Assembly: GCA_963727805.1 (NCBI GenBank)
Contig: CAVSHF010000004.1
Coordinates: 45,132-109,131, forward strand
Direction: 5' to 3'
Source of the DNA: an uncultured Nitrospiraceae bacterium
GTDB taxonomy: Bacteria; Nitrospirota; Thermodesulfovibrionia; Thermodesulfovibrionales; Dissulfurispiraceae
DNA: 64,000 nucleotides
This document shows, piece by piece, positions 30,972 to 58,076 of this stretch; the first letter of the stretch is position 1; each line of letters begins with the position of its first letter. The position numbers were made by a program, and so were the translations under genes. The notes beneath the pieces were generated by a model, which was not told where the DNA came from, searched no databases, and saw only the letters and a list, made by a program, of their open reading frames with translations.

Positions 30972-31047
30972 GGTCCCATCGTCTAGAGGCCTAGGACATA
31001 GCCCTCTCAAGGCTAAGACACGGGTTCGACTCCCGTTGGGACTACCA
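30972..31047 (+). tRNA. tRNA-Glu (CTC); integration target
   Basis: GGTCCCA...TGGGACT-ACCA, anticodon arm TAGCC-CTCTCAA-GGCTA, GTTCGACTC. Confidence 0.96.
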
Positions 31048-31438
31048 AAAAAACATATTAGTTCAGGGTTTTGTGGCAAGTAACACCTTGATCTATTGGA
31101 TTTTTATCACCATCAAGTGTTAACACTGTTGTGCGCTTGAATAGTCGCGCAGCTTTCGCACCGCAAGGCTAAGACACTGGTTCTAATCCATTTTGGATAA
31201 TCAAATAAAATTACGGCAAAAACAATGGGTTGCACCATTAATCCTTTCTTTTTAACCGCGTTATTCGTAGCAGCGTCATAAAAACGTCATGATGTCGAAT
31301 CCCACAATACACAGATTATTGATTCACATTTGATGCCGCGTCTTCTGTGCTGTCGGTAGTTAAACGTAGCGGCATCTAAAATTCGAGGCAAGCATTTGCC
31401 CGCCGCTCTATTGTAATTTGCCAGCTGAGCTAATTGTA
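31048..31438 (+). repeat. Conserved left-end sequence, copy 1 (copies at 38616-38873 and 53313-53703)
   Basis: Shared AAGTGTTAACAC, degenerate tRNA 3' half, GTCATAAAAACGT-AT-ATGTCGAATCCCACA. Confidence 0.9.
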
Positions 31439-31591
31439 GGGGATGTCGCTAAAAAGACGGGAATGCCGTTGTCTACAATTTCACGAATTGAGGGACTCAC
31501 GCATGGATTGCCTATGCTTTCAACCCTTAAAAAGATAGCCGATGCTCTTGATACAAAACTTGTGATAAGGATAGAGGGTAAAAGACGGTAG
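31439..31591 (+). pseudogene. 3' remnant of HTH antitoxin (paralog of 54093-54380)
   Basis: GDVAKKTGMPLSTISRIEGLTHGLPMLSTLKKIADALDTKLVIRIEGKRR-stop; 5' part missing. Confidence 0.85.
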
Positions 31592-31648
31592 AATGCCCTC
31601 TACTTCTCTATCTGGCAACCAATCAAATCAAGTTGTTTGTCCGTTTTC

Positions 31649-32371
31649 TCACTTTTGGCCTCGTCGTGAGCCATAGTTAGTGCGTTTATAAATCCTGATT
31701 TCATTCGTGTCCGGATCTTGAAAAACATTCTCAATTTTATTCCTTTTTGCGTTGTAGGTTATCGGCTCATCCAAAGAGTATGCGTAGAGCGGACGCAAGC
31801 TTCTCGCTGCACACAGCAGCGTCCGGAATACGTAATTCAGAAACGATCCAGTGTAACGGTAGCGCCGTATGCACGTTTCAAGTCTCTTTTGAATTTCATC
31901 GTCATATCCTTGCCAGCGAAATAAGCACTGATAACGGTCAATCCACACGTCAATAGTGTAACGAACAAGTTTGATGATCTCCCGTCTAGCTGACTGATTT
32001 CCGCACTGAGCCAATCGAACAAGTGCAATGCTGATAATGTCCTGCATGCGCCTTTCTTCTTGATCGGAGAATGCAATAAAAACGTATAAGTGTTCGTCAT
32101 ATCTCTTAAGGACGGCGCCGACCTCGGAAGAATTCTCATATGGCTTTCGGTTCTTGTGCCTTCGCCACGGAACCCACCGACGTTGGAATTTCCACTCCAG
32201 CGCATAGGTTACTCTATCCCAGTCTATATGACCGAGCTCCGTCCTGATATTCTTGTAAATGAAACGATAGCAATGTGGAGCGTGTTTCAGGATCCATGAA
32301 CTATTAAAAGCATCGGGATTTTGCCGATTCAAGGTCTCGTTGAGAATTACTATAACTTGATCGAAGATCAT
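31649..32371 (-). CDS. Conserved hypothetical protein with sigma-70 region-2-like C-terminal half (copy 1)
   Basis: Close paralog of 54441-55163; LVRLAQCGNQSARREII...SFLNYVFRTL...YSLDEPI; ATG 32371 after a GGGGG RBS. Confidence 0.6.
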   Translation of the reverse strand: MIFDQVIVILNETLNRQNPDAFNSSWILKHAPHCYRFIYKNIRTELGHIDWDRVTYALEWKFQRRWVPWRRHKNRKPYENSSEVGAVLKRYDEHLYVFIAFSDQEERRMQDIISIALVRLAQCGNQSARREIIKLVRYTIDVWIDRYQCLFRWQGYDDEIQKRLETCIRRYRYTGSFLNYVFRTLLCAARSLRPLYAYSLDEPITYNAKRNKIENVFQDPDTNEIRIYKRTNYGSRRGQK

Positions 32372-32505
32372 CAGTACCCCCCCAAATATGAGAAAATATA
32401 TGGTATTGTACTGTACGATTAGACGCGTTATGAAACTAGACAAGATAATAACGTTCAGGCAGAAAAATTATCTGCTGATTGTACTGCCAAAGGCGGTCCG
32501 TAATC

Positions 32506-34908
32506 TTGAAAGGTGATTCCGCAAACACGCTTAAAGAAGAAATAGCTGAAATCGAGTCTCGCCTCGCCGAACTATATAAGGAACGGGACAGCCTTGATGA
32601 GCGTCTTCAGTCCTTGCAGGTAAAACTGCGGGAAGTTCTGTCGAATAATCAGCAAAAGAAGACTGTATCAGTCATTCTTTCGCCTGAAGAAAAAATTCAT
32701 ATTTTCCGTGATCTTTTCCGTGGTCGAGAAGACGTCTATCCTAAACTCTGGACAAGTAAGAAGACAGGAGCAAAGGGGTACAGTCCCGTTTGCCTTAAAG
32801 AGTGGCAATCAGGCGTATGTAGAAAGCCGACGGTAAAATGTAGCGAATGTAACAATCGGGCCTTCGCACCAGTGACCGATAGTGTCATAAGACAGCACCT
32901 TGACGGACAGATTACAGCCGGTGTGTATCCTTTGCTTGAAGATGACACATGCTGGTTCCTTGCTGTTGATTTCGATAAAAAAGAATGGGAGAAAGACGCA
33001 ATTGCCTTTCTGACAACATGCGAAGCAAACGCAATTTTGGCTTACATTGAGCGGTCCAGATCCGGTAACGGTGCGCACGTCTGGATCTTTTTCAGTGAGC
33101 CAGTCCCGGCTGTACTGGCCCGCCAGCTCGGTGAGTTCCTCATAACTGAAACCATGGAGGAAAGGCATGAGCTCGATATGAAGAGCTACGACAGATTCTT
33201 TCCCAACCAGGACACTCTTCCAAGAGGTGGGTTCGGTAATCTGATAGCGCTTCCACTTCAGAAAATTCCGCGTGAAACAGGCAATAGCGTCTTTGTCGAT
33301 AAGAGCCTTACTCCTTATCCTAATCAGTGGGCTATCCTTGGCAATGTCGGCCACATCTCTTTTCCAGAACTATCTCAATTTCTCGAAGAGAACATCAAGG
33401 CAAAAGGCCTCCTTGGAATTAGAACGAGCCAGGGCGACGACGAGTCTGCACCTTGGGAAAGCCAGTCACTGTCCAAGCGCGTATTCACAAAGCTCACATG
33501 TGCCCTACCTGATCAAATAACCGTTGTTATCGCCAACAGGCTGTACATTAATGAAGAAGGTCTTCCTTCCCAACTTATAACTCGTATAAAACGTCTAGCA
33601 TCATTTCAGAACCCTGAATTCTTTAAGAAACAAAGCATGCGCTTCTCGACGGCGAAAACTCCAAGAGTCATTTGTTGCGCCGAAGAGGTTAATTCATTCG
33701 TCGCTTTGCCACGAGGCTGTCTGGAAGATCTTGGTAAACTCTTATCGATTAATGATATTAACCTCGCCATCGACGACAAGAGATTTAGCGGTGAACCTGC
33801 CGATTTCATATTCCAAGGTGAACTTAATTCGCTCCAGAAAAAAGTTCTGAAGGAGATGCTTAATTATGATACCGGGGTTTTCGTTGCTCCTCCCGGCATA
33901 GGAAAGACAATTTTGGGCATCAAACTTATAGCCGAAAGAAAGGTAAATGCTCTTATTCTGGTCCATCGCAAACCGCTTCTTGATCAGTGGCGTGCCCAAA
34001 TTGCATCATTTTTAGATATGGATATAACGAATGTTGGACAGATCGGCGGAGCTAAAGATAAAGCAACGGGAATCATTGATGTCGCTATGCTTCAGAGCCT
34101 GGACAAAGAGGATGGCATAGACGATAGGGTCAAGCAGTACGGGCAGATAATCGTAGATGAATGCCATCATATCTCTGCGGTTTCCTTTGAGCGCGTCATG
34201 ATGGCGTCAAACGCGAAGTATGTTACTGGCCTCACTGCTACACCTTATCGGAGGGATGGGCATCAGCCAATTATTATCATGCAGTGTGGCCCAATTCGTT
34301 ATTCTGTGAGCACGAAGTCAGTGACGAAAGAGGCTTCGTTTCGACAGCTTTTAGTCGAACGTAAGACAGACTTTTCATGCGAATGGGTCGAAGGCGACCA
34401 TATTACTTCGATTTGGCCACCGCTGATAGCCGATGCTGCCAGAAACGATCTCATCTGTTCGGACGTACCTAATTGCCTCTCGGAAAGGCGCTCTCCCATT
34501 ATTCTTACTGAAAGAAAAGAACACCTTGAATTGTTGAGAGGCTTATTAGAAGGATCAGTTGAGCATTTGGTCGTGTTGCATGGTGGGATGAAAGCCCCAC
34601 AGCGAAGGGAGATGCTCCAGAGGCTTTTCAATACCCCGGAGACCGAAAAGCGTGCTATTTTGGCAACCGGACCATATATTGGGGAAGGGTTTGACGATCC
34701 GAGACTTGATACACTTTTTCTGGCTATGCCCTTTTCTTTCAAAGGAAAGATGGTGCAGTATGCCGGCAGACTTCATCGCCAGCGTGAAAACAAGACTGAG
34801 ATAAGAATTTACGATTACGTCGATAGTAAGATGCCGCTTCTCGATAAAATGTATAAAAGGAGATTGAAGGCTTATAAGTCTCTTGGATATGAGAAACTGG
34901 AGTTGTAA
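32506..34908 (+). CDS. AEP primase-like (TOTE-type) domain plus SF2 DEAD/DEAH helicase fusion (copy 1)
   Basis: FRGREDVY, Cys cluster, FLAVDFD, ERSRSGNGAHVW, GNLIALPLQ; APPGIGKT, DECHH, TATP, QYAGRLHR; TTG start aligns with the ATG of copy 2. Confidence 0.8.
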   Translation: MKGDSANTLKEEIAEIESRLAELYKERDSLDERLQSLQVKLREVLSNNQQKKTVSVILSPEEKIHIFRDLFRGREDVYPKLWTSKKTGAKGYSPVCLKEWQSGVCRKPTVKCSECNNRAFAPVTDSVIRQHLDGQITAGVYPLLEDDTCWFLAVDFDKKEWEKDAIAFLTTCEANAILAYIERSRSGNGAHVWIFFSEPVPAVLARQLGEFLITETMEERHELDMKSYDRFFPNQDTLPRGGFGNLIALPLQKIPRETGNSVFVDKSLTPYPNQWAILGNVGHISFPELSQFLEENIKAKGLLGIRTSQGDDESAPWESQSLSKRVFTKLTCALPDQITVVIANRLYINEEGLPSQLITRIKRLASFQNPEFFKKQSMRFSTAKTPRVICCAEEVNSFVALPRGCLEDLGKLLSINDINLAIDDKRFSGEPADFIFQGELNSLQKKVLKEMLNYDTGVFVAPPGIGKTILGIKLIAERKVNALILVHRKPLLDQWRAQIASFLDMDITNVGQIGGAKDKATGIIDVAMLQSLDKEDGIDDRVKQYGQIIVDECHHISAVSFERVMMASNAKYVTGLTATPYRRDGHQPIIIMQCGPIRYSVSTKSVTKEASFRQLLVERKTDFSCEWVEGDHITSIWPPLIADAARNDLICSDVPNCLSERRSPIILTERKEHLELLRGLLEGSVEHLVVLHGGMKAPQRREMLQRLFNTPETEKRAILATGPYIGEGFDDPRLDTLFLAMPFSFKGKMVQYAGRLHRQRENKTEIRIYDYVDSKMPLLDKMYKRRLKAYKSLGYEKLEL

Positions 34909-35013
34909 GGTAATTTTGGGACAGATTAATATATTAACAAAATAAGGCATATTTACATATATTCAGATAATAGGTATAATTAAATATAACGTAGGAAGGG
35001 CGGGTGATAACAA

Positions 35014-35259
35014 ATGGAAACAGTCATAGTTGGAGAAAGAGGGCAGGTGACAATCCCGAAGAAATTGAGGGATCGTTTCGGCATTAAATCAAAGTCTCCT
35101 GTTGTTTTTGAACTCAGGGAAGACGGGATTATGATCAAGCCGGCCATGACCGTAACGATACGGGAGTTCCCGGACGACTTTATAAGGGAGATCACTGAGG
35201 CGGATCAACTGAAATCTGCGGAAAGGAAGGATATTCTCTCTAGATGGAGAAAAAAATAA
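35014..35259 (+). CDS. AbrB/MazE/SpoVT-family antitoxin
   Basis: VGERGQVTIPKKLRDRFGI; overlaps the PIN gene. Confidence 0.88.
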   Translation: METVIVGERGQVTIPKKLRDRFGIKSKSPVVFELREDGIMIKPAMTVTIREFPDDFIREITEADQLKSAERKDILSRWRKK

Positions 35260-35672
35260 AGGTCTTTCTCGATAGTAATGTCCTGTTTTCGATCGCGTAT
35301 ACGGGCAAGGAGAAATCGCGTTCATACTTAATCTATGAGATCCAGGGTATGGGCATCATTCAAGTATGTCTTTCAAAGCTGGTCTGCGAGGAGACTTTGT
35401 CGAATATCAGAAGAAAGAAGCCTGATTCGGAAAGCCTTCTCAAAGAGCTGATCGAGAAATCGAAGATATTGGGAGATATTGCCGCAGACCTGAAGCATGC
35501 GGAGATACGGAAACTCCCACAGAATGACCGGATTATTCTCACGACAGCTATCTATCATAAGGCAGACATCTTTGTGACCGGAAATGAGAAGGATTTCAGA
35601 AAACTTTATCATAAGAGGGTTTTTAATACTATAGTGCTTAGACCGATCGATTTCCTTAATATGAACTTTTAA
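35244..35672 (+). CDS. PIN-domain toxin (VapC-like)
   Basis: VFLDSNVLFS, E, DRIIL, VTGNEKDF. Confidence 0.85.
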   Translation: MEKKIKVFLDSNVLFSIAYTGKEKSRSYLIYEIQGMGIIQVCLSKLVCEETLSNIRRKKPDSESLLKELIEKSKILGDIAADLKHAEIRKLPQNDRIILTTAIYHKADIFVTGNEKDFRKLYHKRVFNTIVLRPIDFLNMNF

Positions 35673-35827
35673 TCATTGTTTAAAGCGTATATACGCTACT
35701 TTATCTTTGTCCACTGCCCGTTTCTAAAACTGCTACTTACGGGAGACGCGATAATATGAAACACCGGCGAAATCCGCAGGCAAGGCAAAGGAACGTTAGT
35801 CGTGATGGATATCTAGCCTAAGTCGAT

Positions 35828-35982
35828 GTCATAAAAACGTCATAAATTTAGCGGAAAACAAAGGAATCCAAGGGAATCCATAGGAAAACTCAAAACGCTG
35901 AAATGGCATTTAAAACAGTCTGTTATAATAAAATATGTAGGTATTTCAAGCCTGCTTAAAAAACCTATCTACGTACTCTCAA
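35828..35982 (+). repeat. 155-bp right-end sequence, copy 1
   Basis: GTCATAAAAACGTCATAAATTTAGCGGAAAACA...GGTATTTCAAGCCTG...ACTCTCAA; copies at 53121-53275 and 57916-58070. Confidence 0.92.
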
Positions 35983-36193
35983 CTCCACGACACTCAGATG
36001 ATTAGACTGATCATGTGTTCGATGCACTGACCGGGTAGATCATTATTTTTAAGGCAGGCAGGAACCCTGAAAAAGCCTGTTAGCCCTACAATTTGGATCC
36101 GCTTGCGTGTCCCTTCCTGCATTAAGGTATACTTTGTTGACGGGTTGTTGAGGATGATTAATTTCGAAGTAGGTAAACGGGAGACTGTCAATT

Positions 36194-37546
36194 ATGAATA
36201 ATGTTGGGAGAAATGATCCCTGCCCTTGTGGCAGTGGAAAGAAATACAAGAAATGTTGCCTTGCAGAAACCTTTCTGCAAGTTGGCAAGGAAGACTCCAT
36301 CCAAAAACAGCTTGTAGCGGAACTCCAGAACTTCTACAACAAGAATTATAAGGACACCGTTGAAGAAGCCCATGCAATGTTCTGGGATGACTTTATTCCA
36401 CGAGAACACCTTGAAGGTCATGACCTTGATATCGCTTATCAAAACTTCTTTGAATGGATTACCTTTGATTTCATTATAGATCCCGATACCGACAAGACTC
36501 TCGTAGACCTCTATATGGAGCGGAATAAGAGATTGTCACAAGACCAATATAAAATCCTGACTCTCATGAAGAACTCCGTCATAAGTCTATTTGAGGTCCA
36601 GGAGGTCTTTCCTGAGAAGGGACTGTTGCTGAAGGACTTACTGCTGGGTGGGGAATATGATGTAAAGGAAAAGTCTGCTACCCGGAGTCTTAAACGATAC
36701 GATATTTTTGCTGCCCGGCTATTGCTGATTGATGGTCAATATATCATGAGCGGTTCAGTCTTCCCATATAGCATCATGAGGAAAGAAAAGATTCTCGATG
36801 ACATCATGAACGAGTTCCGAGAGTATCAAGAGGCATTGTCCGATGGCACTATGGATATGTTCCTGAAGGAGGCAGGTGATTTATTCAACTTCCACTGGTA
36901 TTTTCCAATCCAATATCCACCGCCGCCGCTGAAACTGCATACCACAAGTGGAGAACCGGTGCTGATTTCCAGAGCGCTATTTGAGATTAAGGATCATGAG
37001 GCCGTCAAGATAGGGTTGCCCAAAATCAAGGGATTTGAACAAGACCACGATGGTTTTACTTGGTATGACAAGAGGAAGCCGGATGGTAGTGCCACGATCC
37101 TTGGCACAATCGAGATCAAGGGTAATAAACTTACACTTGCATGCCATTCAAAGAAAAGACTTGACCGCGGCAAGAAACTTATTCTCGGGGCTCTATCCAA
37201 TACCGTTGTCCACAAGTTAGACACATTTCAAGATCCGATGGAAGCCATTAAATCTCTCAAGGAACAAGCTCCCAATACCACCCCTGAGAATGACTTGCCG
37301 ATGGAGATCCAGCAACGACTATATTATCAGTTCATGCAGAACCACTATGAGAAATGGTTTAGTGATAGAATCCCAGTTCTTGATAACAAGACCCCGTTGG
37401 AGGCTGTTAAGACTGAAGCGGGAAAGCTAAAAGTTATAGAGTTACTTAAACTATATGAAAATGGAGAGGAACTGAATAAACGGGAATCCAGGCCTTATTA
37501 TGACCTTGCTTGGGTTTGGCAACGACTTGGCATTGAAAAGGAATAG
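36194..37546 (+). CDS. SEC-C zinc-motif protein with Xre/MbcA/ParS-like C-terminal domain
   Basis: GRNDPCPCGSGKKYKKCC; C-terminal WFSDRIPVLDNKTPLEAVKTEAGKLKVIELLK. Confidence 0.7.
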   Translation: MNNVGRNDPCPCGSGKKYKKCCLAETFLQVGKEDSIQKQLVAELQNFYNKNYKDTVEEAHAMFWDDFIPREHLEGHDLDIAYQNFFEWITFDFIIDPDTDKTLVDLYMERNKRLSQDQYKILTLMKNSVISLFEVQEVFPEKGLLLKDLLLGGEYDVKEKSATRSLKRYDIFAARLLLIDGQYIMSGSVFPYSIMRKEKILDDIMNEFREYQEALSDGTMDMFLKEAGDLFNFHWYFPIQYPPPPLKLHTTSGEPVLISRALFEIKDHEAVKIGLPKIKGFEQDHDGFTWYDKRKPDGSATILGTIEIKGNKLTLACHSKKRLDRGKKLILGALSNTVVHKLDTFQDPMEAIKSLKEQAPNTTPENDLPMEIQQRLYYQFMQNHYEKWFSDRIPVLDNKTPLEAVKTEAGKLKVIELLKLYENGEELNKRESRPYYDLAWVWQRLGIEKE

Positions 37547-37677
37547 ATACAAGCCAGGGAAATGTATCAAAGGTGGCCGGGATTAATTGCTGGTCTTTTG
37601 TCCTCTTGACATGAGTTAACGTGCAGGTGAACATCTTAATGGGTGAAGGTCTTTGCTGAACACAAAAAAGCGGGATC

Positions 37678-37947
37678 TTATTTATAAACATCACCACGAG
37701 GCGCGATATTGACAATGGCTATGGTGAGAATCTCCGGCATTAACGCAAAGACGATCCGATAATCGCCAACGCGAAGACGGTAAAGTCCCCTCAACTCGCC
37801 GGTCAACGGTTTTACATGGCGGTGTTCAATAGGTGAGTTGCATTCAGCCAACTCCTGGAGATCTTTTTTTATCCGCTTGCGAAGGTCCCTGTCGAGCCGG
37901 GTGAAATAGGCTTCAGCTTTGGACGATATCTTAATCGTCCAGGTCAT
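37678..37947 (-). CDS. RelE/ParE-family toxin
   Basis: KPLTGELRGLYRLRVGDYRIVF...PRGDVYK. Confidence 0.9.
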   Translation of the reverse strand: MTWTIKISSKAEAYFTRLDRDLRKRIKKDLQELAECNSPIEHRHVKPLTGELRGLYRLRVGDYRIVFALMPEILTIAIVNIAPRGDVYK

Positions 37948-38170
37948 TTAAGATTTTCCCGCCACCAGCGTGGATTTCGGCTAGGCCCTCTTTGCACTCT
38001 TCTAGGAAGCCGGGTATGCCAAGCAGTTCTAGGGTCTCTTTGTGTCTACCAATATACTCATCGGTCAGTTCCGTATATATGTCGGAAAGCGATCTATTTT
38101 CGTAACCTGCGATAGCTCTGATGACCTTGAGGCGGTCATCAGGTAGTCTTAATGTCGTTGAGCCTTTCAT
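37931..38170 (-). CDS. Antitoxin (ribbon-helix-helix-like)
   Basis: STTLRLPDD N-terminus, acidic C-terminus, overlaps the relE start. Confidence 0.75.
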   Translation of the reverse strand: MKGSTTLRLPDDRLKVIRAIAGYENRSLSDIYTELTDEYIGRHKETLELLGIPGFLEECKEGLAEIHAGGGKILNDLDD

Positions 38171-38569
38171 TGTTTTTCACCAGTCCTTATAAGATACTTA
38201 CTGTATTAATATTATAATACTATGATATTACAATATCAAGACACTCACATGTTATGGCAGTAAACTAACAGGATCGATTACAGGGAACTACGTTGGAAGC
38301 TCTCCTTTTTCAGCAGTCCAGATCAAGATCTTGATTTGCACCGTTTTGCATGTGGGGGGCTGCCTGAGCGATTACTGGTCGGGCATGTGGGGTCCTTTTA
38401 AGTGTCAACACTTTTGTCAACATATATGAAAGAAATAGGCACTTTTTACCGGAAATAATGGTAAATAAGAGAAATGACAGAAATAACAGAAAGCTCAAAA
38501 CACCCTGAAAACTAAAGTAAATCGCCCAAACCGTTGACAGACAATAGAATTAATAAAATGCTACTAACA

Positions 38570-49931: not shown

Positions 49932-50621
49932 ATGCTCAAGATCGATCCTGCACCAGATTATCCGACCGAAGAAGGCCGATACCTCAGAGGGAACGACTAT
50001 TCTCCAGTGGCCGTCGCTGTTATCCTGATCTATGACAGCGATAAAATCCCAAAGGACATCGAAATGCTTGTGAGGACCGGGGTCGAAGCGGGGGCCGCGC
50101 TTTCCGGCACAATACAGACCGAAAACATCGGCGTCGAAAAGATGGTCTGCAATATCATTGGTAATCCCAATATCCGGTATCTCGTACTGACCGGCCCTGA
50201 ATCTCCCGGTCATTCGACCGGCGAAGCCATAATGTCACTGCTTAAAGATGGTGTCGATGAGCGCAAGAGGATCAGGAACACCGGTGCGCCTACACCTTAT
50301 CTATTCAATCTTCCAATAGAATATATCGAGCGATTCAGAAAACAAATTATTTCCGTAGTCGATCTACTTAACCGTGGAACTCCCGATCTCGTAAGAAAGG
50401 CTGTCTGGTCCTGCTACCAGGAAACCCCAACGGAGTTTGAGGAGCATATGTTGTACGATATCGGCGCGTATCCTGAAACGCCGATAAGTGCCGTCCTCAC
50501 ATGGAGGGTTACTAATCCTGCTTTTGAACCAAAGGATGAACAGGAGCGAAAGCAGAAAGATGATTTTGCAAAGAAGATGGAGGAGATCAGAAAAAAAGTT
50601 CAGGAGAAACACAGAACATGA
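49932..50621 (+). CDS. MtrA-like (tetrahydromethanopterin methyltransferase subunit A domain) corrinoid-binding protein, soluble
   Basis: YP-EEGRY, SPVAV, GAALSG--QTENIGVEK---NIIGNPNIRYL---G-E--GHSTGEA; no C-terminal TM; alternative GTG start at 49908. Confidence 0.8.
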   Translation: MLKIDPAPDYPTEEGRYLRGNDYSPVAVAVILIYDSDKIPKDIEMLVRTGVEAGAALSGTIQTENIGVEKMVCNIIGNPNIRYLVLTGPESPGHSTGEAIMSLLKDGVDERKRIRNTGAPTPYLFNLPIEYIERFRKQIISVVDLLNRGTPDLVRKAVWSCYQETPTEFEEHMLYDIGAYPETPISAVLTWRVTNPAFEPKDEQERKQKDDFAKKMEEIRKKVQEKHRT

Positions 50622-50645
50622 CATGTTTAAAAATGGAGGCATCAG

Positions 50646-51023
50646 GTGAAACTTGTTAAGGTTTTTATATTGATTGGCTTTCTGGTCTTTTCATATGGCA
50701 CCGGCTGGGCGGCCGATTTCGATGCGTTGCTAACAAAAGCAAAGATAGAGAAAAAAGTCGTAATGCTGGAGCTCGGATCAGTTGGTTGCGTTCCCTGTGA
50801 TCAGATGAGACCGGTGATGGACAAGCTCACGCAGAACTATAAAGGCAAGCTCGAAGTCATCTTCGTGGATGTCAGGAAGAATACTGAACCTGCCCGTCGC
50901 TTCAGGGTGTTCGGTATCCCGACCCAGGTCTTTCTCGATAGCGATGGTAAAGAGTTTCACCGCCATATCGGCTATTACGATTATGATTCAATCGTGCCTG
51001 TGTTGAAGAAGGCCGGCATCTGA
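50646..51023 (+). CDS. Exported thioredoxin-family protein
   Basis: Signal peptide, CVPC, IPTQVFLD. Confidence 0.85.
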   Translation: MKLVKVFILIGFLVFSYGTGWAADFDALLTKAKIEKKVVMLELGSVGCVPCDQMRPVMDKLTQNYKGKLEVIFVDVRKNTEPARRFRVFGIPTQVFLDSDGKEFHRHIGYYDYDSIVPVLKKAGI

Positions 51024-51027
51024 ATCA

Positions 51028-51717
51028 ATGGATGCATTGTTTCACAATATTCAAGTCCTTATCCAAGGGCAGCAGCTTCTCGCCTTCCTGCTCGTTTTCG
51101 TTGCTGGGCTGATTTCGGCGAGCAGTCCATGCATTCTCGCTGCGATTCCTCTTATAATCGGATATGTGGGTGGGTATTCCAACGGTAGCCGCGCACGTGC
51201 GGCACTCTTCTCCGCTGTCTTTGTGCTCGGGCTTTCGCTCACCTTTACCCTGCTCGGGGCTGCAGCATCCTCTATCGGTCAACTTCTCGGTTTCCTCGGA
51301 GTGTGGCTGGATTACGGCTTTGCGGCGATAGCGATAATAATGGGTCTTCACCTATTGGGAGTCATTGTTGTGCCCCTTCCGTTACAGAAGACACATCAGA
51401 TAGCAACCAAGGGCTTGTTCGGAGCATTCCTTCTCGGTGTCCTGACAGGCTTGGTTTCGACGCCATGCGCCACTCCTGTCTTGGCGGTGATTCTAGCCTA
51501 TGTGTCGACTGAAGGAGATCTCTATTACGGCAGCGCTCTCCTCTTCATCTATGCCATCGGACACTGTGCATTAATATTTGTGGCTGGGCTATCGGTTGGT
51601 ATTGCAGAAAGTCTTATATCATCTAAAGGAATGAAGAACATTTCACTTTATTCCAAAAGAATAAGCGGTTTGGTATTACTATCAGTCGGCATTTACATTG
51701 GCTTTATCAGTGTGTGA
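51028..51717 (+). CDS. CcdA/DsbD-family membrane thiol-disulfide transporter
   Basis: SPCILAAIP and TPCATPVL cysteine motifs, six TMs. Confidence 0.88.
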   Translation: MDALFHNIQVLIQGQQLLAFLLVFVAGLISASSPCILAAIPLIIGYVGGYSNGSRARAALFSAVFVLGLSLTFTLLGAAASSIGQLLGFLGVWLDYGFAAIAIIMGLHLLGVIVVPLPLQKTHQIATKGLFGAFLLGVLTGLVSTPCATPVLAVILAYVSTEGDLYYGSALLFIYAIGHCALIFVAGLSVGIAESLISSKGMKNISLYSKRISGLVLLSVGIYIGFISV

Positions 51718-52188
51718 GCATTAACAAAAAATCGCAAGGAAGATTTCAACAAGCTAATTGATTTGCCCATTGCATTTCCCTCAATCTCGACGAGTATTGG
51801 AAGAAATACCAGGCAGAGAGAGTCGCTGACACAATGAACTTCGCGGAGAATATGAGCGTGGACCCCTGATGATTGCCGCTCATATCCTCCAGTGTATTCA
51901 GGATCCTGTCCCTTAAGGACTTCTGTAAGAATATGCTCCCATATATGCAGAAATGTGGATCAAGCAATCTATCGACTTCTGCACGTAACCTTTGAATGCA
52001 GGCTTCTCTGTTTAAAAAGGCACAGAATCGATGTTTCTATCGGCTATCACCAAATTCATGATACTGTTAAAATCGACAACTTCCAGTCGTACCAAATTCC
52101 GACTTTATCGAAACCATATGCTAAGAGTTGTTCTTTTGGTTTTCCGGTGTTGATCCGCCGGTTCGGGTATCTTCTGGATAGAGATGTG

Positions 52189-52506
52189 TCAAATGCGAGC
52201 CAATTCAGGTAATCTTTTTATTTTATTTATTTCCTTTGCAATTGATGAATGGGTGACATGATATAAATCCCATGCTAACTGCAAATTAAGCCAAAACTGA
52301 GCCTCCATGCCAAAAAGTCTCTCCAAACGAAGTGCTGTATCCGGAGTTACCCCACGCTTCCCATGAATCAGTTCATTAACACGAGGATATGAAACCCCTA
52401 GTTTTTCAGCCAATTCACTTTGAGTCATGTTCAGTGGTTTAAGAAATTCCTCCAACAGCATTTCGCCTGGATGTGTCGGCGGACCATTCTTGGGTATGCG
52501 TACCAT
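52189..52506 (-). CDS. higA: HigA antitoxin
   Basis: PTHPGEML-EEFLKP, GKRGVTPDTALRL, FWLNLQ. Confidence 0.92.
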   Translation of the reverse strand: MVRIPKNGPPTHPGEMLLEEFLKPLNMTQSELAEKLGVSYPRVNELIHGKRGVTPDTALRLERLFGMEAQFWLNLQLAWDLYHVTHSSIAKEINKIKRLPELARI

Positions 52507-52518
52507 CTTCAGCCTCCT

Positions 52519-52812
52519 TTAGTGGTAGTCTGTAATTTCAACGTTTTCCGCACCATCATCAGTCCACACAAAACAAACACGGAACTGGTCGTTAATTCGT
52601 ATGCTGTGCTGCCCCTTCCGTTCATCTCTTAGAGACTCCAAGAAATTTCCCGGCGGGATTTTCAACGAATCCAACGAAACTACACCATTGAGTTGATCTA
52701 ATTTTCGTTGTGCCACACGCCAAATTTGTGCCGGACAGGTCTGACGCGCCTCTCTTGTGTTGTTCCTATCAAAAATATCCTCTGTGCCTCTGTTACGGAA
52801 CGATTTGATCAC
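52519..52812 (-). CDS. higB: HigB toxin (plasmid-maintenance killer type)
   Basis: MIKSF, PPGN-LE-L, HSIRINDQFRVCFVW, EITDYH. Confidence 0.92.
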   Translation of the reverse strand: MIKSFRNRGTEDIFDRNNTREARQTCPAQIWRVAQRKLDQLNGVVSLDSLKIPPGNFLESLRDERKGQHSIRINDQFRVCFVWTDDGAENVEITDYH

Positions 52813-53120
52813 CAGGCAACCTCACGTTTTTTACGTTGACACGATGATATGAGTATAATGGATAACGTTATATATAGCAAGAGATATTAACAGTATTAAC
52901 TTTAAATCAAGATAATGGCAAGTACCTTGTGTTCTTGGACTACAAACACAGGCATACACATTACTCTAATTATAACGATAACGCACAAGATTAAGTGTAG
53001 GCATTTCAGTGCAGATTAAATAATCTGTTCTATCCCTAGTGCAATTAATATGCTATTAAAGAAGCAACAAGGATAAGGGAAAACAACGGTAGTTACGATT
53101 GTCATCGAGACCGAGTGAAT

Positions 53121-53275
53121 GTCATAAAAACGTCATAAATTTAGCGGAAAACATAGGGATTTGTGAGAATCCATAGGAAAACTCAAGACACGTAAATTGT
53201 AATTTAAAACAGTCTGTTATATAAAATATCTAGGTATTTCAAGCCTGTTTAAAAACCCTATCTAAGCACTCTCAA
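53121..53275 (+). repeat. 155-bp right-end sequence, copy 2
   Basis: Aligns with 35828-35982 and 57916-58070. Confidence 0.92.
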
Positions 53276-53312
53276 GGCTAAGACACGGGTTCGAATCCCG
53301 TTGGGACTACCA
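53269..53312 (+). repeat. att-like direct repeat: tRNA-Glu 3' half (one substitution in T-loop)
   Basis: CTCTCAAGGCTAAGACACGGGTTCGAATCCCGTTGGGACTACCA versus 31004-31047. Confidence 0.95.
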
Positions 53313-53705
53313 ATAAAGCATTTTAGTTCACGGTTTTATGGCCAGCAACATCTTGATCTATTTGATTTTTCTCACCATCAAGTGTTAACACGTCTGTGTG
53401 CTTGAATAGTCCTGCAGCTTCGCCTCCGGAAGGCTAAGACAGTGGTTCAAATCCTTTTTTGACGACCAAATAAAATCACAATAAAAACAAGGTGTTGAAC
53501 CATCAATCCGTCTCTTTTTTACAGCATAATTCTTGGCAACGTCATAAAAACGTAATAATGTCGAATCCCACAATACACAGATTATGGATTCACATTTTGA
53601 TGCCGCGTCTTCTGCGCCAAGGCAGTTAAACGTAGCGGAGTCGAAATTCAAGGCAAGCATTTACCTGCCACTCTATTGTTATTGGCCAGCCGAGCCAATT
53701 GTAAT

Positions 53706-53723
53706 TATAGCATTAATGCTATA
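53706..53723. promoter_or_regulatory. Perfect 18-bp palindrome, probable TA autorepression operator
   Basis: TATAGCATTAATGCTATA, 10 bp before the toxin ATG at 53734. Confidence 0.6.
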
Positions 53724-53733
53724 TACTATACCC

Positions 53734-54087
53734 ATGAACTGGACGATAAATTATTACGTGACAAGCGATGGAAAATGTCCGGTCAAGAAATTCATCGATC
53801 TGCTTTCTGCCGAGAGCAAAGCAAAATTTGTTTTTATTGCTGATCTGCTCGAAGAATACGGGTTGAAGGTAAAAGAACCTTATGTGAAACCGATTACGGG
53901 CTTTAGAAAGCTGTTTGAAATACGAATAAAGGATAAGTCAAACATCCACAGGATATTCTATTTTGCCTATACCGGCAAGAGACTTATTTTGCTTCATGGA
54001 TTTACAAAGAAAACGGAAAAGACTCGGGGCAGGGAAATTGTAGTAGCCGAAAGAAGAATGGAAGAGTATCTTTTAAGAAAGGAGTAG
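53734..54087 (+). CDS. RelE/HigB (Gp49-like) toxin
   Basis: YYVTSDGKCPVKKFI, LFEIRIK, RIFYF, LLHGFTKKT. Confidence 0.88.
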   Translation: MNWTINYYVTSDGKCPVKKFIDLLSAESKAKFVFIADLLEEYGLKVKEPYVKPITGFRKLFEIRIKDKSNIHRIFYFAYTGKRLILLHGFTKKTEKTRGREIVVAERRMEEYLLRKE

Positions 54088-54092
54088 TCACC

Positions 54093-54380
54093 ATGATAAC
54101 TTACAGAGAGCATAGAAAAGAGCTTTTAAAAGACAAAAAGGTAAAAGACGAGTACGAAAAACTTCTTCCCGAATATGAGCTGGCGAAAAGTTTGATCGAT
54201 CAGCGGCTGAAAAGAAGGATGACCCAAGGGGATGTCGCTAAAAAGACAGGAATGCCTCAGTCTACAATTTCGCGAATTGAGGGGCTCACGCATGGATTGC
54301 CTAAGCTTTCCACCCTTAAAAAGATAGCCGATGCTCTTGATGCAAAACTTGTGATAAGGATAGAGGGTAAAAGACGGTAG
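54093..54380 (+). CDS. XRE-HTH antitoxin
   Basis: MTQGDVAKKTGMPQSTISRIE...LSTLKKIADAL. Confidence 0.9.
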   Translation: MITYREHRKELLKDKKVKDEYEKLLPEYELAKSLIDQRLKRRMTQGDVAKKTGMPQSTISRIEGLTHGLPKLSTLKKIADALDAKLVIRIEGKRR

Positions 54381-54440
54381 CATGCCATCTGATCCACTAT
54401 CTGGCAACCAATTGCAAAATAAAGGTGTCTGTCCGCTTTC

Positions 54441-55163
54441 TCACTTTTGGCCATGTCGCGCGCCACAATTAGTGCGTCTATAAATTCGGATTTCATTCGT
54501 GTCCGGATCTTGAAAAACATTCTCAATTTTGCTCCTTTTTGCGTCGTAGGTTATCGGCTCATCCAAAGAATATACATAGAGCGGACGCAAGCTTCTCGCT
54601 GCAAATAGCAGCGTCCGGAATACGTAATTCAGAAATGATCCAGTATAACGGTAGCGCCGTATGCATGTTTCGAGTCTCTTTTGAATTTCATCGTCATATC
54701 CTTGCCAGCGAGATAAGCACTGATAACGGTCAATCCACACGTCAATAGTGTAACAAACAAGTTTAATGATCTCCCGTCTTGCTGACTGATTTCCGCACTG
54801 CGCCAGTCGAACAAGTGCAATGCTGATCATGTCCTGCATTCGCCTTTCTTCTTGATCAGAGCATGCAATAAAAACGTATAAGTGTTCGCTATATCTCCTA
54901 AGGACGACGTCGACCTCAGAAGAATTCTCATAGGGCTTTCGGTTCTTGTGCCTTCGCCACGGAACCCACCGACGCTGGAATTTCCACTCCAGCGAATAGG
55001 TTACTCTATCCCAGTCTATATGACCGAGCTCCGTCCTGATATTCTTGTAAATGAAACGATAGCAATGTGGAGCGTGTTTCAGTATCCATGAACTATTAAA
55101 AGTGTCGGGATTATGCTGATTTAAGGTCTCGTTGAGAATTCCTATGACTTGATCGAAGATCAT
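54441..55163 (-). CDS. Conserved hypothetical protein with sigma-70 region-2-like C-terminal half (copy 2)
   Basis: Close paralog of 31649-32371. Confidence 0.6.
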   Translation of the reverse strand: MIFDQVIGILNETLNQHNPDTFNSSWILKHAPHCYRFIYKNIRTELGHIDWDRVTYSLEWKFQRRWVPWRRHKNRKPYENSSEVDVVLRRYSEHLYVFIACSDQEERRMQDMISIALVRLAQCGNQSARREIIKLVCYTIDVWIDRYQCLSRWQGYDDEIQKRLETCIRRYRYTGSFLNYVFRTLLFAARSLRPLYVYSLDEPITYDAKRSKIENVFQDPDTNEIRIYRRTNCGARHGQK

Positions 55164-55297
55164 CTGTACCACCCCAAATATGTGAAAATATATGGTATTG
55201 TACTGTACGATTAGACGCGTTATGAAACTAGACAAGATAATAACAGTCAGGCAGAAAAATGAACTATTGATTATCCTGCAAAAGGCAGTCTGCAATC

Positions 55298-57706
55298 ATG
55301 GAAGGTAATTCCGTAGACGCACTTAAAGAAGAAATAGCGGAGATTGAGTCTCGCCTCGCTGAACTCGACAAGGAACGTGGCAGCCGTCATGAGCGGCTTC
55401 AGTCCTTGCAGACACAACTACGGGAAGCTCTGTCGAATAATCAGCAAAAGAATACTGTATCAGTCGTTCTTTCGCCTGAACAAAAAATTCATATCTTCCG
55501 TGCTCTTTTCCGAGGTAGAGAAGACGTCTATCCTAAACTCTGGACAAGTAAGAAGACAGGAGCAAAGGGGTACAGTCCTGTTTGTCTTAAAGAGTGGCAA
55601 TCAGGCATATGCAGAAAACCGACGGTAAAATGTAGCGAATGTAACCATCGGGCCTTCGCACCAGTTACCGATAGTGTCATAAGACAGCACCTCGACGGAC
55701 AGATTACAGCCGGTGTGTATCCATTGCTTGAAGATGACACATGCTGGTTCCTTGCTGTTGATTTCGATAAAAAAGAATGGGCCAAAGACGCAACTGCATT
55801 TCTGGTTACTTGCAAGGCAAACACAATTCCTGCTTACCTTGAAAGATCCCGGTCTGGTAATGGGGGCCATATATGGATCTTCTTCAATGAGCCAGTCCCG
55901 GCGGCTCTGGCTCGCCAACTGGGTGAGTTCCTGATAACCGAGACAATGGAGGCGAGATCCGAGCTAGACATGAAAAGCTATGATAGGCTCTTTCCAAATC
56001 AAGACACTCTTCCAAAAGGTGGATTTGGGAATCTAATAGCGCTTCCTCTACAGAAAGTTCCAAGGGAGGCAGGCAATAGCGTTTTCGTCGACGAAGACCT
56101 AACTCCAAACCCTGATCAGTGGGCTATACTGGCCAATGTCAGTCGAATCTGCCTTCCAGAACTCACCCAATTCCTCAAAGAAAACATTAAGATAAAGGGA
56201 CTCCTTGGTATCCGAAAAAGCCAGATTGATGAAGAGACTGCACCGTGGGAAAATCAGTCTTTATCTGAACGAATATTCAAGAAACTCACATGTGCACTTC
56301 CCGATCTGATCACAGTTGTGATGGCCAATCAGCTTTACATTAAGAAAGACGGTCTTCCCTCTCAACTCATAACTCGCATCAAAAGGCTCGCATCATTTCA
56401 AAACCCTGAATTCTTCAAGAAGCAAAGTATGCGCTTTTCTACAGCCAAGACCCCAAGAGTTATTTGCTGCGCTGATGAAATTGATTCCTTTGTTGCAATA
56501 CCGCGGGGTTGTCTGGATGATCTTTCAAAGCTTCTGTCCACTAATGAGATTAACATCGCCATCGATGACAAGAGGGTTACCGGGGAACCTACCGATTTTT
56601 CCTTCCAAGGCGAACTTAACCCCTTGCAGGAAAGGGCTCTTAAAGAAATGCTTAAATTTGATACTGGGGTCTTCGTAGCACCTCCGGGCGTCGGGAAGAC
56701 GGTGCTGGGCATCAAACTTATCGCCAAAAGGCAGGTAAATACACTTGTTCTGGTGCATCGTAAGCCGCTCCTTGATCAGTGGCGAGCCCAGATTGCATCA
56801 TTTTTCGATATGGACGTAAAAAAAATAGGGCAGATTGGCGGAGCCAAGGACAGAGCTACGGGAGTCATTGATGTCGCTATGCTCCAGAGTATGGACAAAG
56901 AAGATGGAGTTGACGATCGAATCAGGCAATATGGGCAAATAATTGTAGATGAATGCCATCATATCTCAGCGGTTTCTTTTGAGCGCGTAATGATGGCGGC
57001 TCGTGCAAGATATGTTGCAGGTCTAACTGCCACTCCGTATCGGAGAGATGGACATCAGCCTATCATTACCATGCAGTGCGGCCCGATTCGTTGCTCAATA
57101 AGTACAAAGTCTGTCGCTAAAGAGGCAGCGTTCCGACAGCTTCTGATCGAACGTCAAACCGATTTCTCGTGCGAATGGACTGAAGGGGACCATATTACTA
57201 CAATTTGGCCGCTCTTGATAACGGACGATGCCCGAAACGATCTCATATGCAAAGACGTGCTTACTGTTCTCTCAGAAGGAAGATCTCCCATTATTCTTAC
57301 TGAAAGGAAGGAACACCTCGAACTACTAAAAGGTAAGCTTGAAGAATCGATCGAGCATTTGGTCATACTTCATGGAGGGATGCGAGCTTCTCACCGAAGG
57401 GAGATGCTCCAGAAGCTTTTCAACACCAAGGAAACTGAAACTCGGGTTATTCTTGCAACCGGACCATATATTGGAGAAGGGTTTGACGATCCAAGACTTG
57501 ATACACTTTTTTTAGCCATGCCTTTCTCGTTCAAGGGTAAGATGGTACAGTATGCCGGCAGACTTCATCGTCAGAGAGAAAACAAGAAAGAGATCAGAAT
57601 TTACGATTATGTTGATAGCAAGATGCCTATCTTTGATAAAATGTATAAACGGAGATTAAAGGCCTACAAGTCCCTCGGCTATGAAAGAGCGACGGCTGTC
57701 GATTAA
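55298..57706 (+). CDS. AEP primase-like (TOTE-type) domain plus SF2 helicase fusion (copy 2)
   Basis: Same motifs as copy 1, intact: DFD, SRSGNGGH, GVGKT, DECHH. Confidence 0.8.
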   Translation: MEGNSVDALKEEIAEIESRLAELDKERGSRHERLQSLQTQLREALSNNQQKNTVSVVLSPEQKIHIFRALFRGREDVYPKLWTSKKTGAKGYSPVCLKEWQSGICRKPTVKCSECNHRAFAPVTDSVIRQHLDGQITAGVYPLLEDDTCWFLAVDFDKKEWAKDATAFLVTCKANTIPAYLERSRSGNGGHIWIFFNEPVPAALARQLGEFLITETMEARSELDMKSYDRLFPNQDTLPKGGFGNLIALPLQKVPREAGNSVFVDEDLTPNPDQWAILANVSRICLPELTQFLKENIKIKGLLGIRKSQIDEETAPWENQSLSERIFKKLTCALPDLITVVMANQLYIKKDGLPSQLITRIKRLASFQNPEFFKKQSMRFSTAKTPRVICCADEIDSFVAIPRGCLDDLSKLLSTNEINIAIDDKRVTGEPTDFSFQGELNPLQERALKEMLKFDTGVFVAPPGVGKTVLGIKLIAKRQVNTLVLVHRKPLLDQWRAQIASFFDMDVKKIGQIGGAKDRATGVIDVAMLQSMDKEDGVDDRIRQYGQIIVDECHHISAVSFERVMMAARARYVAGLTATPYRRDGHQPIITMQCGPIRCSISTKSVAKEAAFRQLLIERQTDFSCEWTEGDHITTIWPLLITDDARNDLICKDVLTVLSEGRSPIILTERKEHLELLKGKLEESIEHLVILHGGMRASHRREMLQKLFNTKETETRVILATGPYIGEGFDDPRLDTLFLAMPFSFKGKMVQYAGRLHRQRENKKEIRIYDYVDSKMPIFDKMYKRRLKAYKSLGYERATAVD

Positions 57707-57915
57707 GCGCACTGACGAGGCGGTGTCAGACAAACAAGCCACAGGTGACATCAAAAGAAAAAATGTATAATATTGCATTCGCCTCAAGATGCAGCCGTTC
57801 GTCGAGTATAGGACCATCCTTGGTGTCACACTTCATCTTCAAATCAGCACCGCAGAAATATCGTCGGAGGTAAGAATTTCAAAAAATAACTGTCGGCAAT
57901 AGAACCCAAGTTGAC

Positions 57916-58076
57916 GTCATAAAAACGTCATAAATTTAGCGGAAAACATAGGAATTTATGAGAATCCAGAGGAAAACTCAATGCACCAAAAAAGGATTTT
58001 AAAACAGTCTGTTATGTGAAAAAAGTAGGTATTTCAAGCCTGCTAAAAAACCCTGTCTATGTACTCTCAAGGCTAA
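57916..58076 (+). repeat. 155-bp right-end sequence, copy 3, followed by GGCTAA
   Basis: Ends CTCTCAAGGCTAA (13 bp identical to tRNA-Glu), then diverges. Confidence 0.9.

Follow-up and report, generated by a model that had tools for sequence, protein, structure and literature searches.

The locus analysed here raises the question of how a series of gene blocks, none of which encodes an integrase, came to be stacked at a single tRNA gene. The initial annotation of the window (the whole stretch of DNA that was analysed, 64,000 nucleotides) had read these blocks as a dedicated integron-like cassette system. Our results support the part of that reading in which the units are non-autonomous, joined at the 7-bp anticodon loop and in need of another element's integrase. 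The integron-like system itself was not borne out, as the ends are ordinary att arms, belonging to elements that carry an integrase at the same tRNA in relatives; three mixed arm families, blocks of 2.6-65 kb and the lack of a resident partner integrase also oppose it. These units are more probably tandem integrase-less islands with arms from integrative elements of relatives, built and moved by a visiting element (CIME accretion, cis-mobilization). Mobilization by a visitor is likely because the integrase gene is absent and the docking arms are well preserved.

One class of lambda-type integrases crosses over at the 7-bp anticodon loop, and Williams, in 2002, is said to have classified tRNA sublocations. 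Here, a tRNA-Gln(CTG) gene (30893-30966) immediately precedes the tRNA-Glu(CTC) gene, these two being the only structured RNAs that Rfam recovered over 30000-64000. The tRNA call places the anticodon at gene position 35, and the heptamer CTCTCAA at 31004-31010 is therefore the anticodon loop. Its recurrences at 35976, 38572, 53269 and 58064 were confirmed, as were the lengths of the four units that they delimit (Table 1). By itself, the heptamer carries no statistical weight: the window contains 12 copies where 11.85 would be expected, and three plus-strand copies inside the array are off the junctions. Combined with the right half-site, it has eight matches in the genome, all within the array, and none in three shuffles of the largest contig. 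In the autonomous elements of relatives, right-end identity with the tRNA also begins at the core heptamer.

The array had been thought to end at 58076, but four more cores are present on contig C3. Crossing from the window into this adjoining contig, it comprises nine cores and at least eight units over about 131 kb. In two congeners, the tRNA is followed by backbone genes that are placed here on contig C5, so that a rearrangement hides the island's true right end. Repeats misjoined around the tRNA could in principle have produced such a pattern, and the window does end at a contig break inside the array. Nevertheless, an assembly artefact is hardly credible: the arms are only 81-93% identical, independent contigs span the junctions (L067 over 34947-36074 and 38366-38691; L064 over 51921-53310), the C4/C3 break is bridged by a homologous repeat at C5:44021, and a genome of the same genus, G003, carries an array of the same kind at the same tRNA.

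Table 1. Coordinates of the array features (window positions, unless preceded by a contig name).
Feature	Position	Strand	Remarks
tRNA-Glu(CTC)	30972..31047	+	intact target gene; ARAGORN, Rfam
7-bp core, junction J0	31004..31010	+	anticodon loop; putative crossover region
Unit A	31004..35975		4972 bp; also truncated HTH antitoxin, unannotated ORF (-)
Composite left arm, copy 1	31004..31306	+	
Integrase C-terminus remnant, left arm 1	31209..31286	-	tblastn, weak alone, E 0.11
AEP-TOTE primase-helicase, unit A	32479-34908		
AbrB/MazE + PIN toxin-antitoxin pair, unit A	35014-35672		
Right arm R, copy 1	35828..35982	+	ends in core J1
Unit B	35976..38571		2596 bp
Minimal left half-site S	35983..36004	+	about 11-22 bp, without tRNA half
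SEC-C protein, unit B	36194-37546		
ParE toxin, unit B	37678-37947	-	upstream 79-aa partner ORF ends near 37931
Right arm R'	38402..38578	+	second family, different direct repeat; ends in core J2
Unit C	38572..53268		14697 bp
Composite left arm, copy 2	38572..38873	+	
Integrase C-terminal remnant, left arm 2	38791-38880	-	30 aa, 53% identity to G003 integrases
TAT molybdopterin oxidoreductase operon, unit C	39339-45393	-	
Arsenic-resistance-type cluster, unit C	45654-51717	+	ArsR, ArsC-like, permease, Acr3
HigB/HigA pair, unit C	52189-52812	-	
Right arm R, copy 2	53121..53275	+	ends in core J3
Unit D	53269..58063		4795 bp; homologous to unit A; also unannotated ORF (-)
Composite left arm, copy 3	53269..53572	+	
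Gp49-like toxin + HTH antitoxin, unit D	53584-54380		
AEP-TOTE primase-helicase, unit D	55298-57706		
Right arm R, copy 3	57916..58070	+	ends in core J4, then degenerate tRNA half
Unit E, start	58064..64000		CheB/CheR-PAS kinase, response regulator; continues to core C3:59126
Further cores	C3:59126, C3:80902, C3:87143, C3:98268		

The units range from 2.6 to 65 kb and are multi-gene, with operons on both strands. Their cargo, described at first as heterogeneous, is so only in part, as units A and D are homologous (84% identity over 3459 bp), with their paired primase-helicase genes differing at 128 of 286 four-fold sites. The minus-strand ORFs of these two units have no Pfam match, and that of unit D also none in PADLOC. 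In unit C, Acr3 and HigA exceed their cut-offs, and the oxidoreductase remains under every family cut-off, with PhsA as the best. A toxin-antitoxin pair is located within about 0.9 kb of an end in all four window units.

The ends of the units appear to be lambda-type attachment arms of three integrase families, mixed in the array. The junctions at the heptamer are real, but the single standardised end that had been proposed does not hold, as right ends are R or R' and left ends long, minimal or degenerate. Three of the four right ends in the window are one arm R of ~155 bp, that at 38572 being the different arm R'. The long left arm is present at three of five left ends, the others being the ~20-bp half-site S (35976) and a degenerate end (58064). 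At 38572 and 53269, the tRNA 3' half and the shared left end were recovered as reported, with 84-88% identity over 304-441 bp. Over the whole genome, core and arms occur at nine junctions, with a full right arm on 8/8 units (six R, one R' and one R'') and a full left arm on 3/8.

Read against the layout of lambda att and the IHF consensus, R copy 1 presents a direct repeat, an IHF-like site, a box also found in the integrase leader, a core-type site and the core; we infer IHF and RDF roles for such sites. In left arm copy 1, the tRNA 3' half is followed by a gene-less micro-unit of 156 bp, a decayed second core (+156) and the left arm of family 1, whose direct repeat is at +271. The family-1 arm is now 270-272 bp from the usable core, versus 114 bp in the autonomous element. 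A palindromic motif of the micro-unit at +113, which resembles the R' repeat, fits the autonomous +114 position, and the overlap of the second core varies between copies. Altogether, the 7-bp core, core-type sites, arm repeats and accessory-protein-like sites appear to match the ends of autonomous relatives.

The absence of a recombinase ORF was confirmed, since none of the 30 window ORFs scanned (from 31649 on) matched a tyrosine or serine recombinase family. Genome-wide six-frame searches with PF00589 and PF00239 gave no match inside the window, and a six-frame profile of 11 related integrases recovered only remnants in the array and no intact matching integrase in the genome. Decayed remnants, as expected of ordinary degenerate islands, are found in part: the 3' end of the integrase gene persists in the left arms outside any ORF, each full left arm still encoding its last ~30 codons, and a frameshifted remnant of ~120 codons follows core C3:87143. 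All seven complete composite left arms exit the integrase frame at one common breakpoint.

The matching gene is found in relatives. At the same tRNA, G003 has two intact integrases (396 and 391 aa), which occupy the first and second places after it, and their 3' ends overlap the arm repeat also seen in the left arms of the window. The second adjoins HTH_17, actin-like, Replic_Relax and DUF3854/DUF927 genes. An element with the same arm repeat in G036 carries an integrase, a TrwB-type coupling protein, a TrwC relaxase and HTH_17. The nine best of 17 integrase loci inspected are all at tRNA-Glu(CTC). In four of four autonomous elements tested, the integrase leader and its own right arm have a 14-21-nt word in common (7-14 nt for other pairs). 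The leader of the first G003 integrase has 18-20 nt in common with the three R arms of the window, whereas its match to the five remaining arms is 7-11 nt.

Candidate resident partners were rejected. The product of C3:91776-92867 (PF00589), near the array, is fused to Mop/TOBE domains and is presumably a molybdate-type regulator. The other 12 PF00589 matches (two Xer-like genes, eight dispersed, identical and insertion-sequence-like copies of 314 aa, a 328-aa gene and a broken fragment) are no better than 22-26% identical to the matching integrase over long stretches. The weak profile match C3:2137323-2138374 corresponds to a gene of a different type that is interrupted, and all four resolvase-domain matches are distant from the array. 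A phage helper was also discarded, as the viral contigs scanned had neither the arm motif nor an integrase relative. No conjugation or mobilization genes were found by Pfam among 30 window and 54 C3 ORFs (most of the ORFs), tblastn of six helper proteins gave no match in the genome, and the only helper backbone DNA in the array is one 103-bp match (C3:30481-30580). The array may be frozen in this genome, because neither an intact matching integrase nor an excisionase, relaxase or common oriT-like DNA was found in it.

These absences could also indicate ordinary decay, in which autonomous islands lost their integrases independently, are now immobile and have similar ends through common ancestry. 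The genome without a matching integrase, the frameshifted remnant, the damaged ends (the halves at 58064 and C3:80902 are degenerate, R' is truncated at C3:58114-58208, and insertion sequences interrupt arms in G003 and L063) and the G003 cargo blocks fused across former junctions agree with it. Nevertheless, independent losses would not yield one breakpoint in 7/7 left arms, and the motif-biased conservation, fixed spacing and varied pairings of the arms described below also oppose decay, which we regard as improbable.

Motif blocks of the composite left arms are 93-100% identical versus 73-87% for spacers, and in the seven R copies not selected by pattern the values are 94-100% for motifs, 65-80% for spacers and 40-55% for the outer flank, contrasts that are inflated because the blocks were drawn after the alignments had been seen. 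In the six R arms of this genome, with blocks so drawn, 45 of 55 motif columns are invariant versus 58 of 100 elsewhere (p = 0.003). The R arm-to-core distance is 139-143 bp in 18/18 full copies. The arms likely remained in use after the loss of the integrase gene, since motifs and spacing were kept, spacers drift and the left arms have a single breakpoint. Nevertheless, gene conversion among arms could mimic selection, and selection on R could date from the autonomous-element stage. The 18 full R arms represent 11 combinations of left flank and right partner (four left classes with two or three partners each), drawn from contigs of six metagenome assemblies as well as from G000 and G003. A tree of these arms was set aside because of its poor resolution, with good support for 1 of 15 branches.

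As anticipated, the same ends surround other cargo elsewhere, with new left/right pairings in G003 and in 12 metagenome contigs; these are short (1.3-12 kb), so the lack of an integrase in 11 of them shows little. G003 was the sole match of the arm search in 61 relatives, and a species-wide genome scan returned two matches, both in G003. Among 301 genomes of the order (excluding G003 and G036), the S motif was found in this genome only and the exact arm repeat in three. The ends are clade-restricted among the genomes searched. The literature searched, mostly outside subscription journals, held no description of the locus or clade.

The conserved arms could instead belong to professional non-autonomous elements, each excising and integrating alone with an integrase in trans, the composite left end serving two integrase families. 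In favor of this, the composite left arms diverged by 11-17% after their one breakpoint and yet conserve the arm repeat, the IHF-like site and the second core-type site; the micro-unit motif fits both the autonomous position and the R' repeat; its 156-bp insert approximates 15 helical turns (arithmetic, and weak); one L...R cassette is present in two diverged copies, units A and D; and toxin-antitoxin pairs stand near the ends. However, the long left arm starts only three of eight units, no integrase of the second arm family was identified, the second-core overlap differs between copies, and neither a relaxase nor an oriT-like sequence was recovered, which leaves a lone circle without an evident route between cells. 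We therefore consider this unlikely. Rather doubtful, too, is the idea that one ancestral integrase deletion gave long-lived arm-only cassettes, in which a composite left end serving two families and a right arm of fixed length would allow integrases from two or more families, in passing, to reshuffle blocks of 3-65 kb. If true, such cassettes would relate to lambda-type integrases as MITEs do to transposases, and defence, arsenic-resistance and respiratory gene blocks would be excised and reshuffled at the tRNA.

In the preferred accretion model, an integrative mobilizable element that encodes a relaxase and an HTH excisionase besides its lambda-type tyrosine integrase would enter the intact tRNA at the 7-bp loop, displacing older units away from it. 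At excision, the integrase would pair the left site of this helper with any downstream right arm and core of its family, and helper and stack segment would exit as one circle and transfer together. The later excision or deletion of the helper would leave integrase-free units, of which those beginning with the whole tRNA 3' half could stand first and those with an S end only downstream. Deletions and insertion sequences would then fuse and erode the units, while selection would retain arm motifs, arm-to-core spacing and end-proximal toxin-antitoxin pairs. The excess of right arms over long left arms is as co-excision predicts. Integrase action in trans is possible, and cis co-excision with a visiting helper would account for the anatomy no less well; that the family-1 left arm stayed conserved once the integrase was lost is unneeded for pure cis-mobilization and points to a trans role.

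Circles and excision were sought in contigs of seven distinct runs and no interpretable circle was found. One contig, with 30 letters on the short side, holds a junction that exactly skips unit B (35974 to 38571), which excision and a different array order fit equally well. The 22 runs listed were all available as contigs, none with half of the words; such small shares are no evidence of habitat, and contigs of RNA runs cannot show expression.

CIMEs and a three-step model of their accretion have been defined previously (PMC5704250, PMC7563491), and such accretion is already in print (also PMC3146451), as far as the available parts of these papers go. The array units agree with this definition: they have no functional integrase or mobilization genes and retain attL/attR, and their derivation from an ICE or IME by deletion is supported by the ~30 integrase codons and by the relaxase genes of autonomous relatives with the same repeat. 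Functional elements are also nearest the target, as judged from one array, that of G003, whose two integrase-bearing elements are first and second. In contrast, IMEs, ICEs and tycheposons have their own integrase, which the array units lack.

In the available sections on Streptococcus (PMC5704250, PMC7563491), CIMEs and microCIMEs have likewise lost integration and transfer genes and kept attL/attR, are stacked at a tRNA or other target gene with functional elements nearest it, and carry heavy-metal and toxin-antitoxin cargo; gene-less microCIMEs of 130-220 bp match our 156-bp micro-unit. The S. salivarius survey gives, in those sections, tandems of two or three and no same-family ICE/IME tandems, whereas this array has eight units over 131 kb and reuses one right-arm family six times. 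In addition, only in the array, judged against those sections, do micro-unit and next arm form a fixed composite end with one integrase-loss breakpoint, do left ends shrink to a ~20-bp half-site, and is the crossover at the anticodon loop, with the tRNA 3' half restored by the element. Mobilization has been proven for Streptococcus CIMEs (PMC5704250, PMC7563491) and is a proposal for our array.

Similarly, the account of Dehalococcoides available in part (PMC3146451) describes several tandem ssrA islands with respiratory cargo, clustered around a single RNA gene over about 100 kb; 15 of the islands are without an integration module and were proposed as CIMEs. Those islands use serine recombinases and a 20-bp repeat at the tmRNA, unlike the tyrosine integrase, 7-bp anticodon-loop core and conserved arms of ~150-300 bp here. 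In Prochlorococcus, according to the available parts of bioRxiv 10.1101/2020.12.28.424599, where tycheposons and tRNA-seeded islands are found, new elements likewise enter at the tRNA and displace earlier material outwards, old events can be recognized from partial tRNAs and integrase fragments, and primase-helicase genes are present. However, tycheposons encode their own integrase, and most island material there has no clear ends, whereas the array arms are conserved and integrase-free.

The comparison with integrons holds loosely. Integrons have an IntI-family integrase, attI, and palindromic attC sites recombined as folded single strands. The matching integrase is not IntI-type (34.8 bits versus a TIGR02249 cut-off of 265), and none of the 25 longest inverted repeats listed is at a junction. 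The array ends can be explained as direct-repeat att arms that originate from mobile elements, in three mixed families, and the units, with genes on both strands, differ from small, mostly single-gene, co-oriented cassettes. Nevertheless, the available part of PMC11389934 shows exchangeable units with toxin-antitoxin pairs near their ends in integrons and CALINs, and CALINs, too, rely on an integrase encoded elsewhere.

Accessory genes of this genome amounting to about 131 kb (3.4%) are gathered at the locus, including arsenite efflux, molybdenum oxidoreductase, multiheme cytochrome and secretion genes, and such ends would be missed by integrase-anchored island finders. With the arms, the matching integrase and a candidate excisionase all identified, it is a testable case of whether CIMEs are maintained substrates or dead ends. 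In addition, the leader/right-arm box of 14-21 nt, which identified the partner in 4/4 cases, can assign orphan arms to their integrase.

By itself, the heptamer CTCTCAA is at chance level in the window (12 found against 11.85 expected). Together with the right half-site it matches eight times in the 3.9-Mb genome, always within the array, and has no match in three shuffled versions of the largest contig; a ninth junction, the degenerate one at 58064, lies beyond these matches. The initial annotation had identified the first heptamer as the anticodon loop of tRNA-Glu, with recurrences at 35976, 38572, 53269 and 58064 delimiting units of 4972, 2596, 14697 and 4795 bp; the tRNA gene (Table) confirms the former, a position count the recurrences, and the lengths are correct. 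The window ends with its contig, C4, and a homologous repeat elsewhere spans the break between C4 and contig C3 of the same genome, which supports their joining; the outermost cores of the array are then 131,262 bp apart. The backbone genes found 3' of tRNA-Glu in two congeners sit here on another contig (C5 near 107154, versus C4/C3), and a large rearrangement therefore lies between the array and what was once its right flank.

Target gene, cores and left ends of the array (C3: positions on contig C3; others, positions in the window)
Feature	Position	Description
tRNA-Glu(CTC)	30972-31047	target gene
Core / anticodon loop of tRNA-Glu(CTC)	31004-31010	
Further cores on C3	C3:59126, 80902, 87143, 98268	
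Composite left arm	31004, 38572, 53269	tRNA 3' half, gene-less 156-bp unit, decayed second core, second left arm
Minimal left end (S)	35976, C3:59126, C3:98268	~20-bp half-site
Broken left end	C3:87143	tRNA half, then broken integrase

Six junctions are preceded by one and the same right arm of ~155 bp (R), consisting of a direct repeat, an IHF-like site, a conserved box, a core-type site and the core. Another arm, R', precedes the junction at 38572, and a third, R'', that at C3:98268; R'' is similar to the right terminus of an autonomous element from genome G216. The layout of the lambda att site, together with comparison with relatives, served for naming these parts, so that arm repeat, IHF-like and excisionase box are putative labels. 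The left ends are of three kinds: composite, minimal, and a degenerate or broken remainder, which apart from C3:87143 consists of degenerate tRNA halves. A perfect extended -10-like hexamer directed at the core is present in the R arm of 35976 (35917-35935), although a cassette-driving promoter is doubtful because the other copies deviate from it. A second repeat family, possibly insertion-sequence ends, lies just within several unit ends (39117-39212, 58360-58454 and 51861-51989); in other parts of the genome, further copies are located close to dispersed recombinase genes. At C3:58114-58980, nested scraps of old ends (a truncated R', a vapC-region tail and a LigD phosphoesterase gene) are fused upstream of an R arm.

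The same ends do flank different cargo, a point on which the initial annotation had made its reading depend. An exact 27-nt pattern retrieved 12 metagenome contigs from six assembly prefixes, which together with the source genome and its congener G003 contain 20 R arms. The 18 complete ones represent 11 different pairings of an upstream flank with a downstream partner, and every one of the four upstream-flank classes is paired with two or three partners. The S and tRNA-half partners part ways immediately after the heptamer, and the tRNA, R, R' and R'' immediately before it, the pattern expected of crossover at the core. That the junctions are products of misassembly is very improbable, since three of them are spanned by independent contigs; among seven distinct contig sets, one joint skips unit B (35976-38571) exactly, which a different array order fits equally. 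An integrase was found in one of the 12 contigs (L065, 45% identical, right of the core), its absence from the other 11 carrying little weight as they are short. Cargo also moves by internal deletion, as with the unit B genes, found in G003 at 95% identity but with neither end present.

ORF scans and six-frame searches of the locus and the whole genome (two family searches and a profile of 11 related integrases) detected no intact matching integrase in the source genome, which is not among the 52 of 251 genomes with a match; to this extent, the array is integrase-less as first described. The gene at C3:91776-92867 (L018:15776-16867) was rejected, its tyrosine-recombinase-like domain being fused to two Mop/TOBE domains; it is likely a molybdate/tungstate regulator and a false lead in integrase searches. 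Among 60 other relatives, only G003 matches the arms at the DNA level. At the same tRNA it too carries an array, with tyrosine integrases of 396 and 391 aa, both oriented towards the tRNA, encoded by the first and second elements. The 3'-terminal codons of these integrase genes overlap an arm repeat also present in the window left arms, which still code for that C-terminus (copy at 38572: 30 aa, 53% identity, E 0.002-0.009). Seventeen integrase loci were inspected, of which the best nine are at tRNA-Glu(CTC) and the remaining eight at other tRNAs; the right ends of these integrase-bearing elements have the R layout, the tRNA match beginning at the heptamer.

In four of four such elements, a word of 14-21 nt occurs both in the integrase leader and in the right arm of that same element. 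The leader of the first G003 integrase has 18-20 nt in common with the three window R arms, versus 7-11 nt in the case of five other arms; that of the second integrase has only 12 nt in common at one mismatch and 19 at three. This leader box, upstream of the integrase start (loci L076-L092), is repeated in the own right arm (L106-L114, L126) and co-varies between families, one version recurring 5' of integrases that target other tRNAs; it is possibly an excisionase site coupling integrase expression to excision. The autonomous elements with the arm repeat, carrying HTH_17, Replic_Relax and a primase-like gene in G003 and TrwB, TrwC and HTH_17 in genome G036, look like integrative mobilizable elements (IMEs). 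In L122 (G025:C57, from about 15750), a family-1 left arm comes after tRNA-Glu, and the ~600 bp remaining to the contig end contain no integrase frame.

The arm-to-core distance is 139-143 bp in 18/18 full R arms. With motif blocks drawn after the alignments had been seen and gene conversion a possible source of identity, seven R copies not selected by pattern are 94-100% identical in motif blocks, 80% in the core-type site, 65-80% in spacers and 40-55% in the outer flank, invariant columns in the six own copies number 45/55 in motifs versus 58/100 elsewhere (p = 0.003), and composite left arms reach 93-100% in motif blocks versus 73-87% in spacers. The primase-helicase genes of units A (31004-35975) and D (53269-58063) differ at 128 of 286 four-fold sites. 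At the sequence level, there are thus signs of continued use of the arms. Integrase remnants beside the att sites, which the initial annotation had regarded as incompatible with its reading, do exist in the left-arm coding and at C3:87143, and damaged ends would fit pure decay of the elements. Nevertheless, the integrase frame is left at the same place in all seven complete composite left arms, so that their divergence postdates one integrase loss, and this single breakpoint makes pure decay improbable.

The initial annotation had proposed serial capture of the units by a trans-acting integrase. Left-arm conservation leaves some room for excision of units in trans, which we consider unlikely, and we favour accretion of cis-mobilizable elements devoid of their own integrase (CIMEs) as the probable mechanism. 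A helper IME would enter the tRNA, its integrase being able to pair the helper left site with any downstream R-core; helper and stack segment would exit and transfer together, and the helper would depart later. CIME accretion needs right arms more than left, which fits the eight right against three left here, explains the first place of a unit with the whole tRNA half and the confinement of S units to downstream positions, and agrees with the tRNA-proximal integrases of G003.

CIMEs are defined as having lost integration and transfer genes while keeping attL and attR, and their movement depends on accretion with an integrative conjugative element or IME, microCIMEs being 130-220 bp (PMC5704250, PMC7563491), a size like that of the 156-bp unit of the composite left arm. 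In Dehalococcoides, islands stand in tandem at ssrA, and 15 of them have no integration module (PMC3146451), Prochlorococcus islands grow outward from tRNAs (bioRxiv 10.1101/2020.12.28.424599), the same direction as here, and integrase-less integron cassette arrays (CALINs) are the integron counterpart of this array (PMC11389934); PMC5812530 gives general background only. The likeness to integrons first suggested holds only loosely: the locus lacks the testable integron features and has the testable CIME ones. It is real and probably an unusually clear case of a known process, a few of its features being absent from the literature searched; compared with streptococcal CIMEs, it differs in size, in the six-fold use of one arm family and in its fixed composite end.

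As to cargo, a 700-bp unit directly 3' of tRNA-Glu in L060 (G006:C6, about 91850-92550) comprises a left arm and a putative toxin-antitoxin pair, the next core being reached without a right arm. Units A and D share a conserved ORF (31649-32443 and 54441-55295, minus strand) that is oriented divergently from their AEP-TOTE primase-helicase gene, neither copy having a Pfam match. The largest unit contains a group II intron reverse transcriptase (C3:7002-8474) and, at C3:14270-25387, a cluster of type II secretion/type IV pilus genes.
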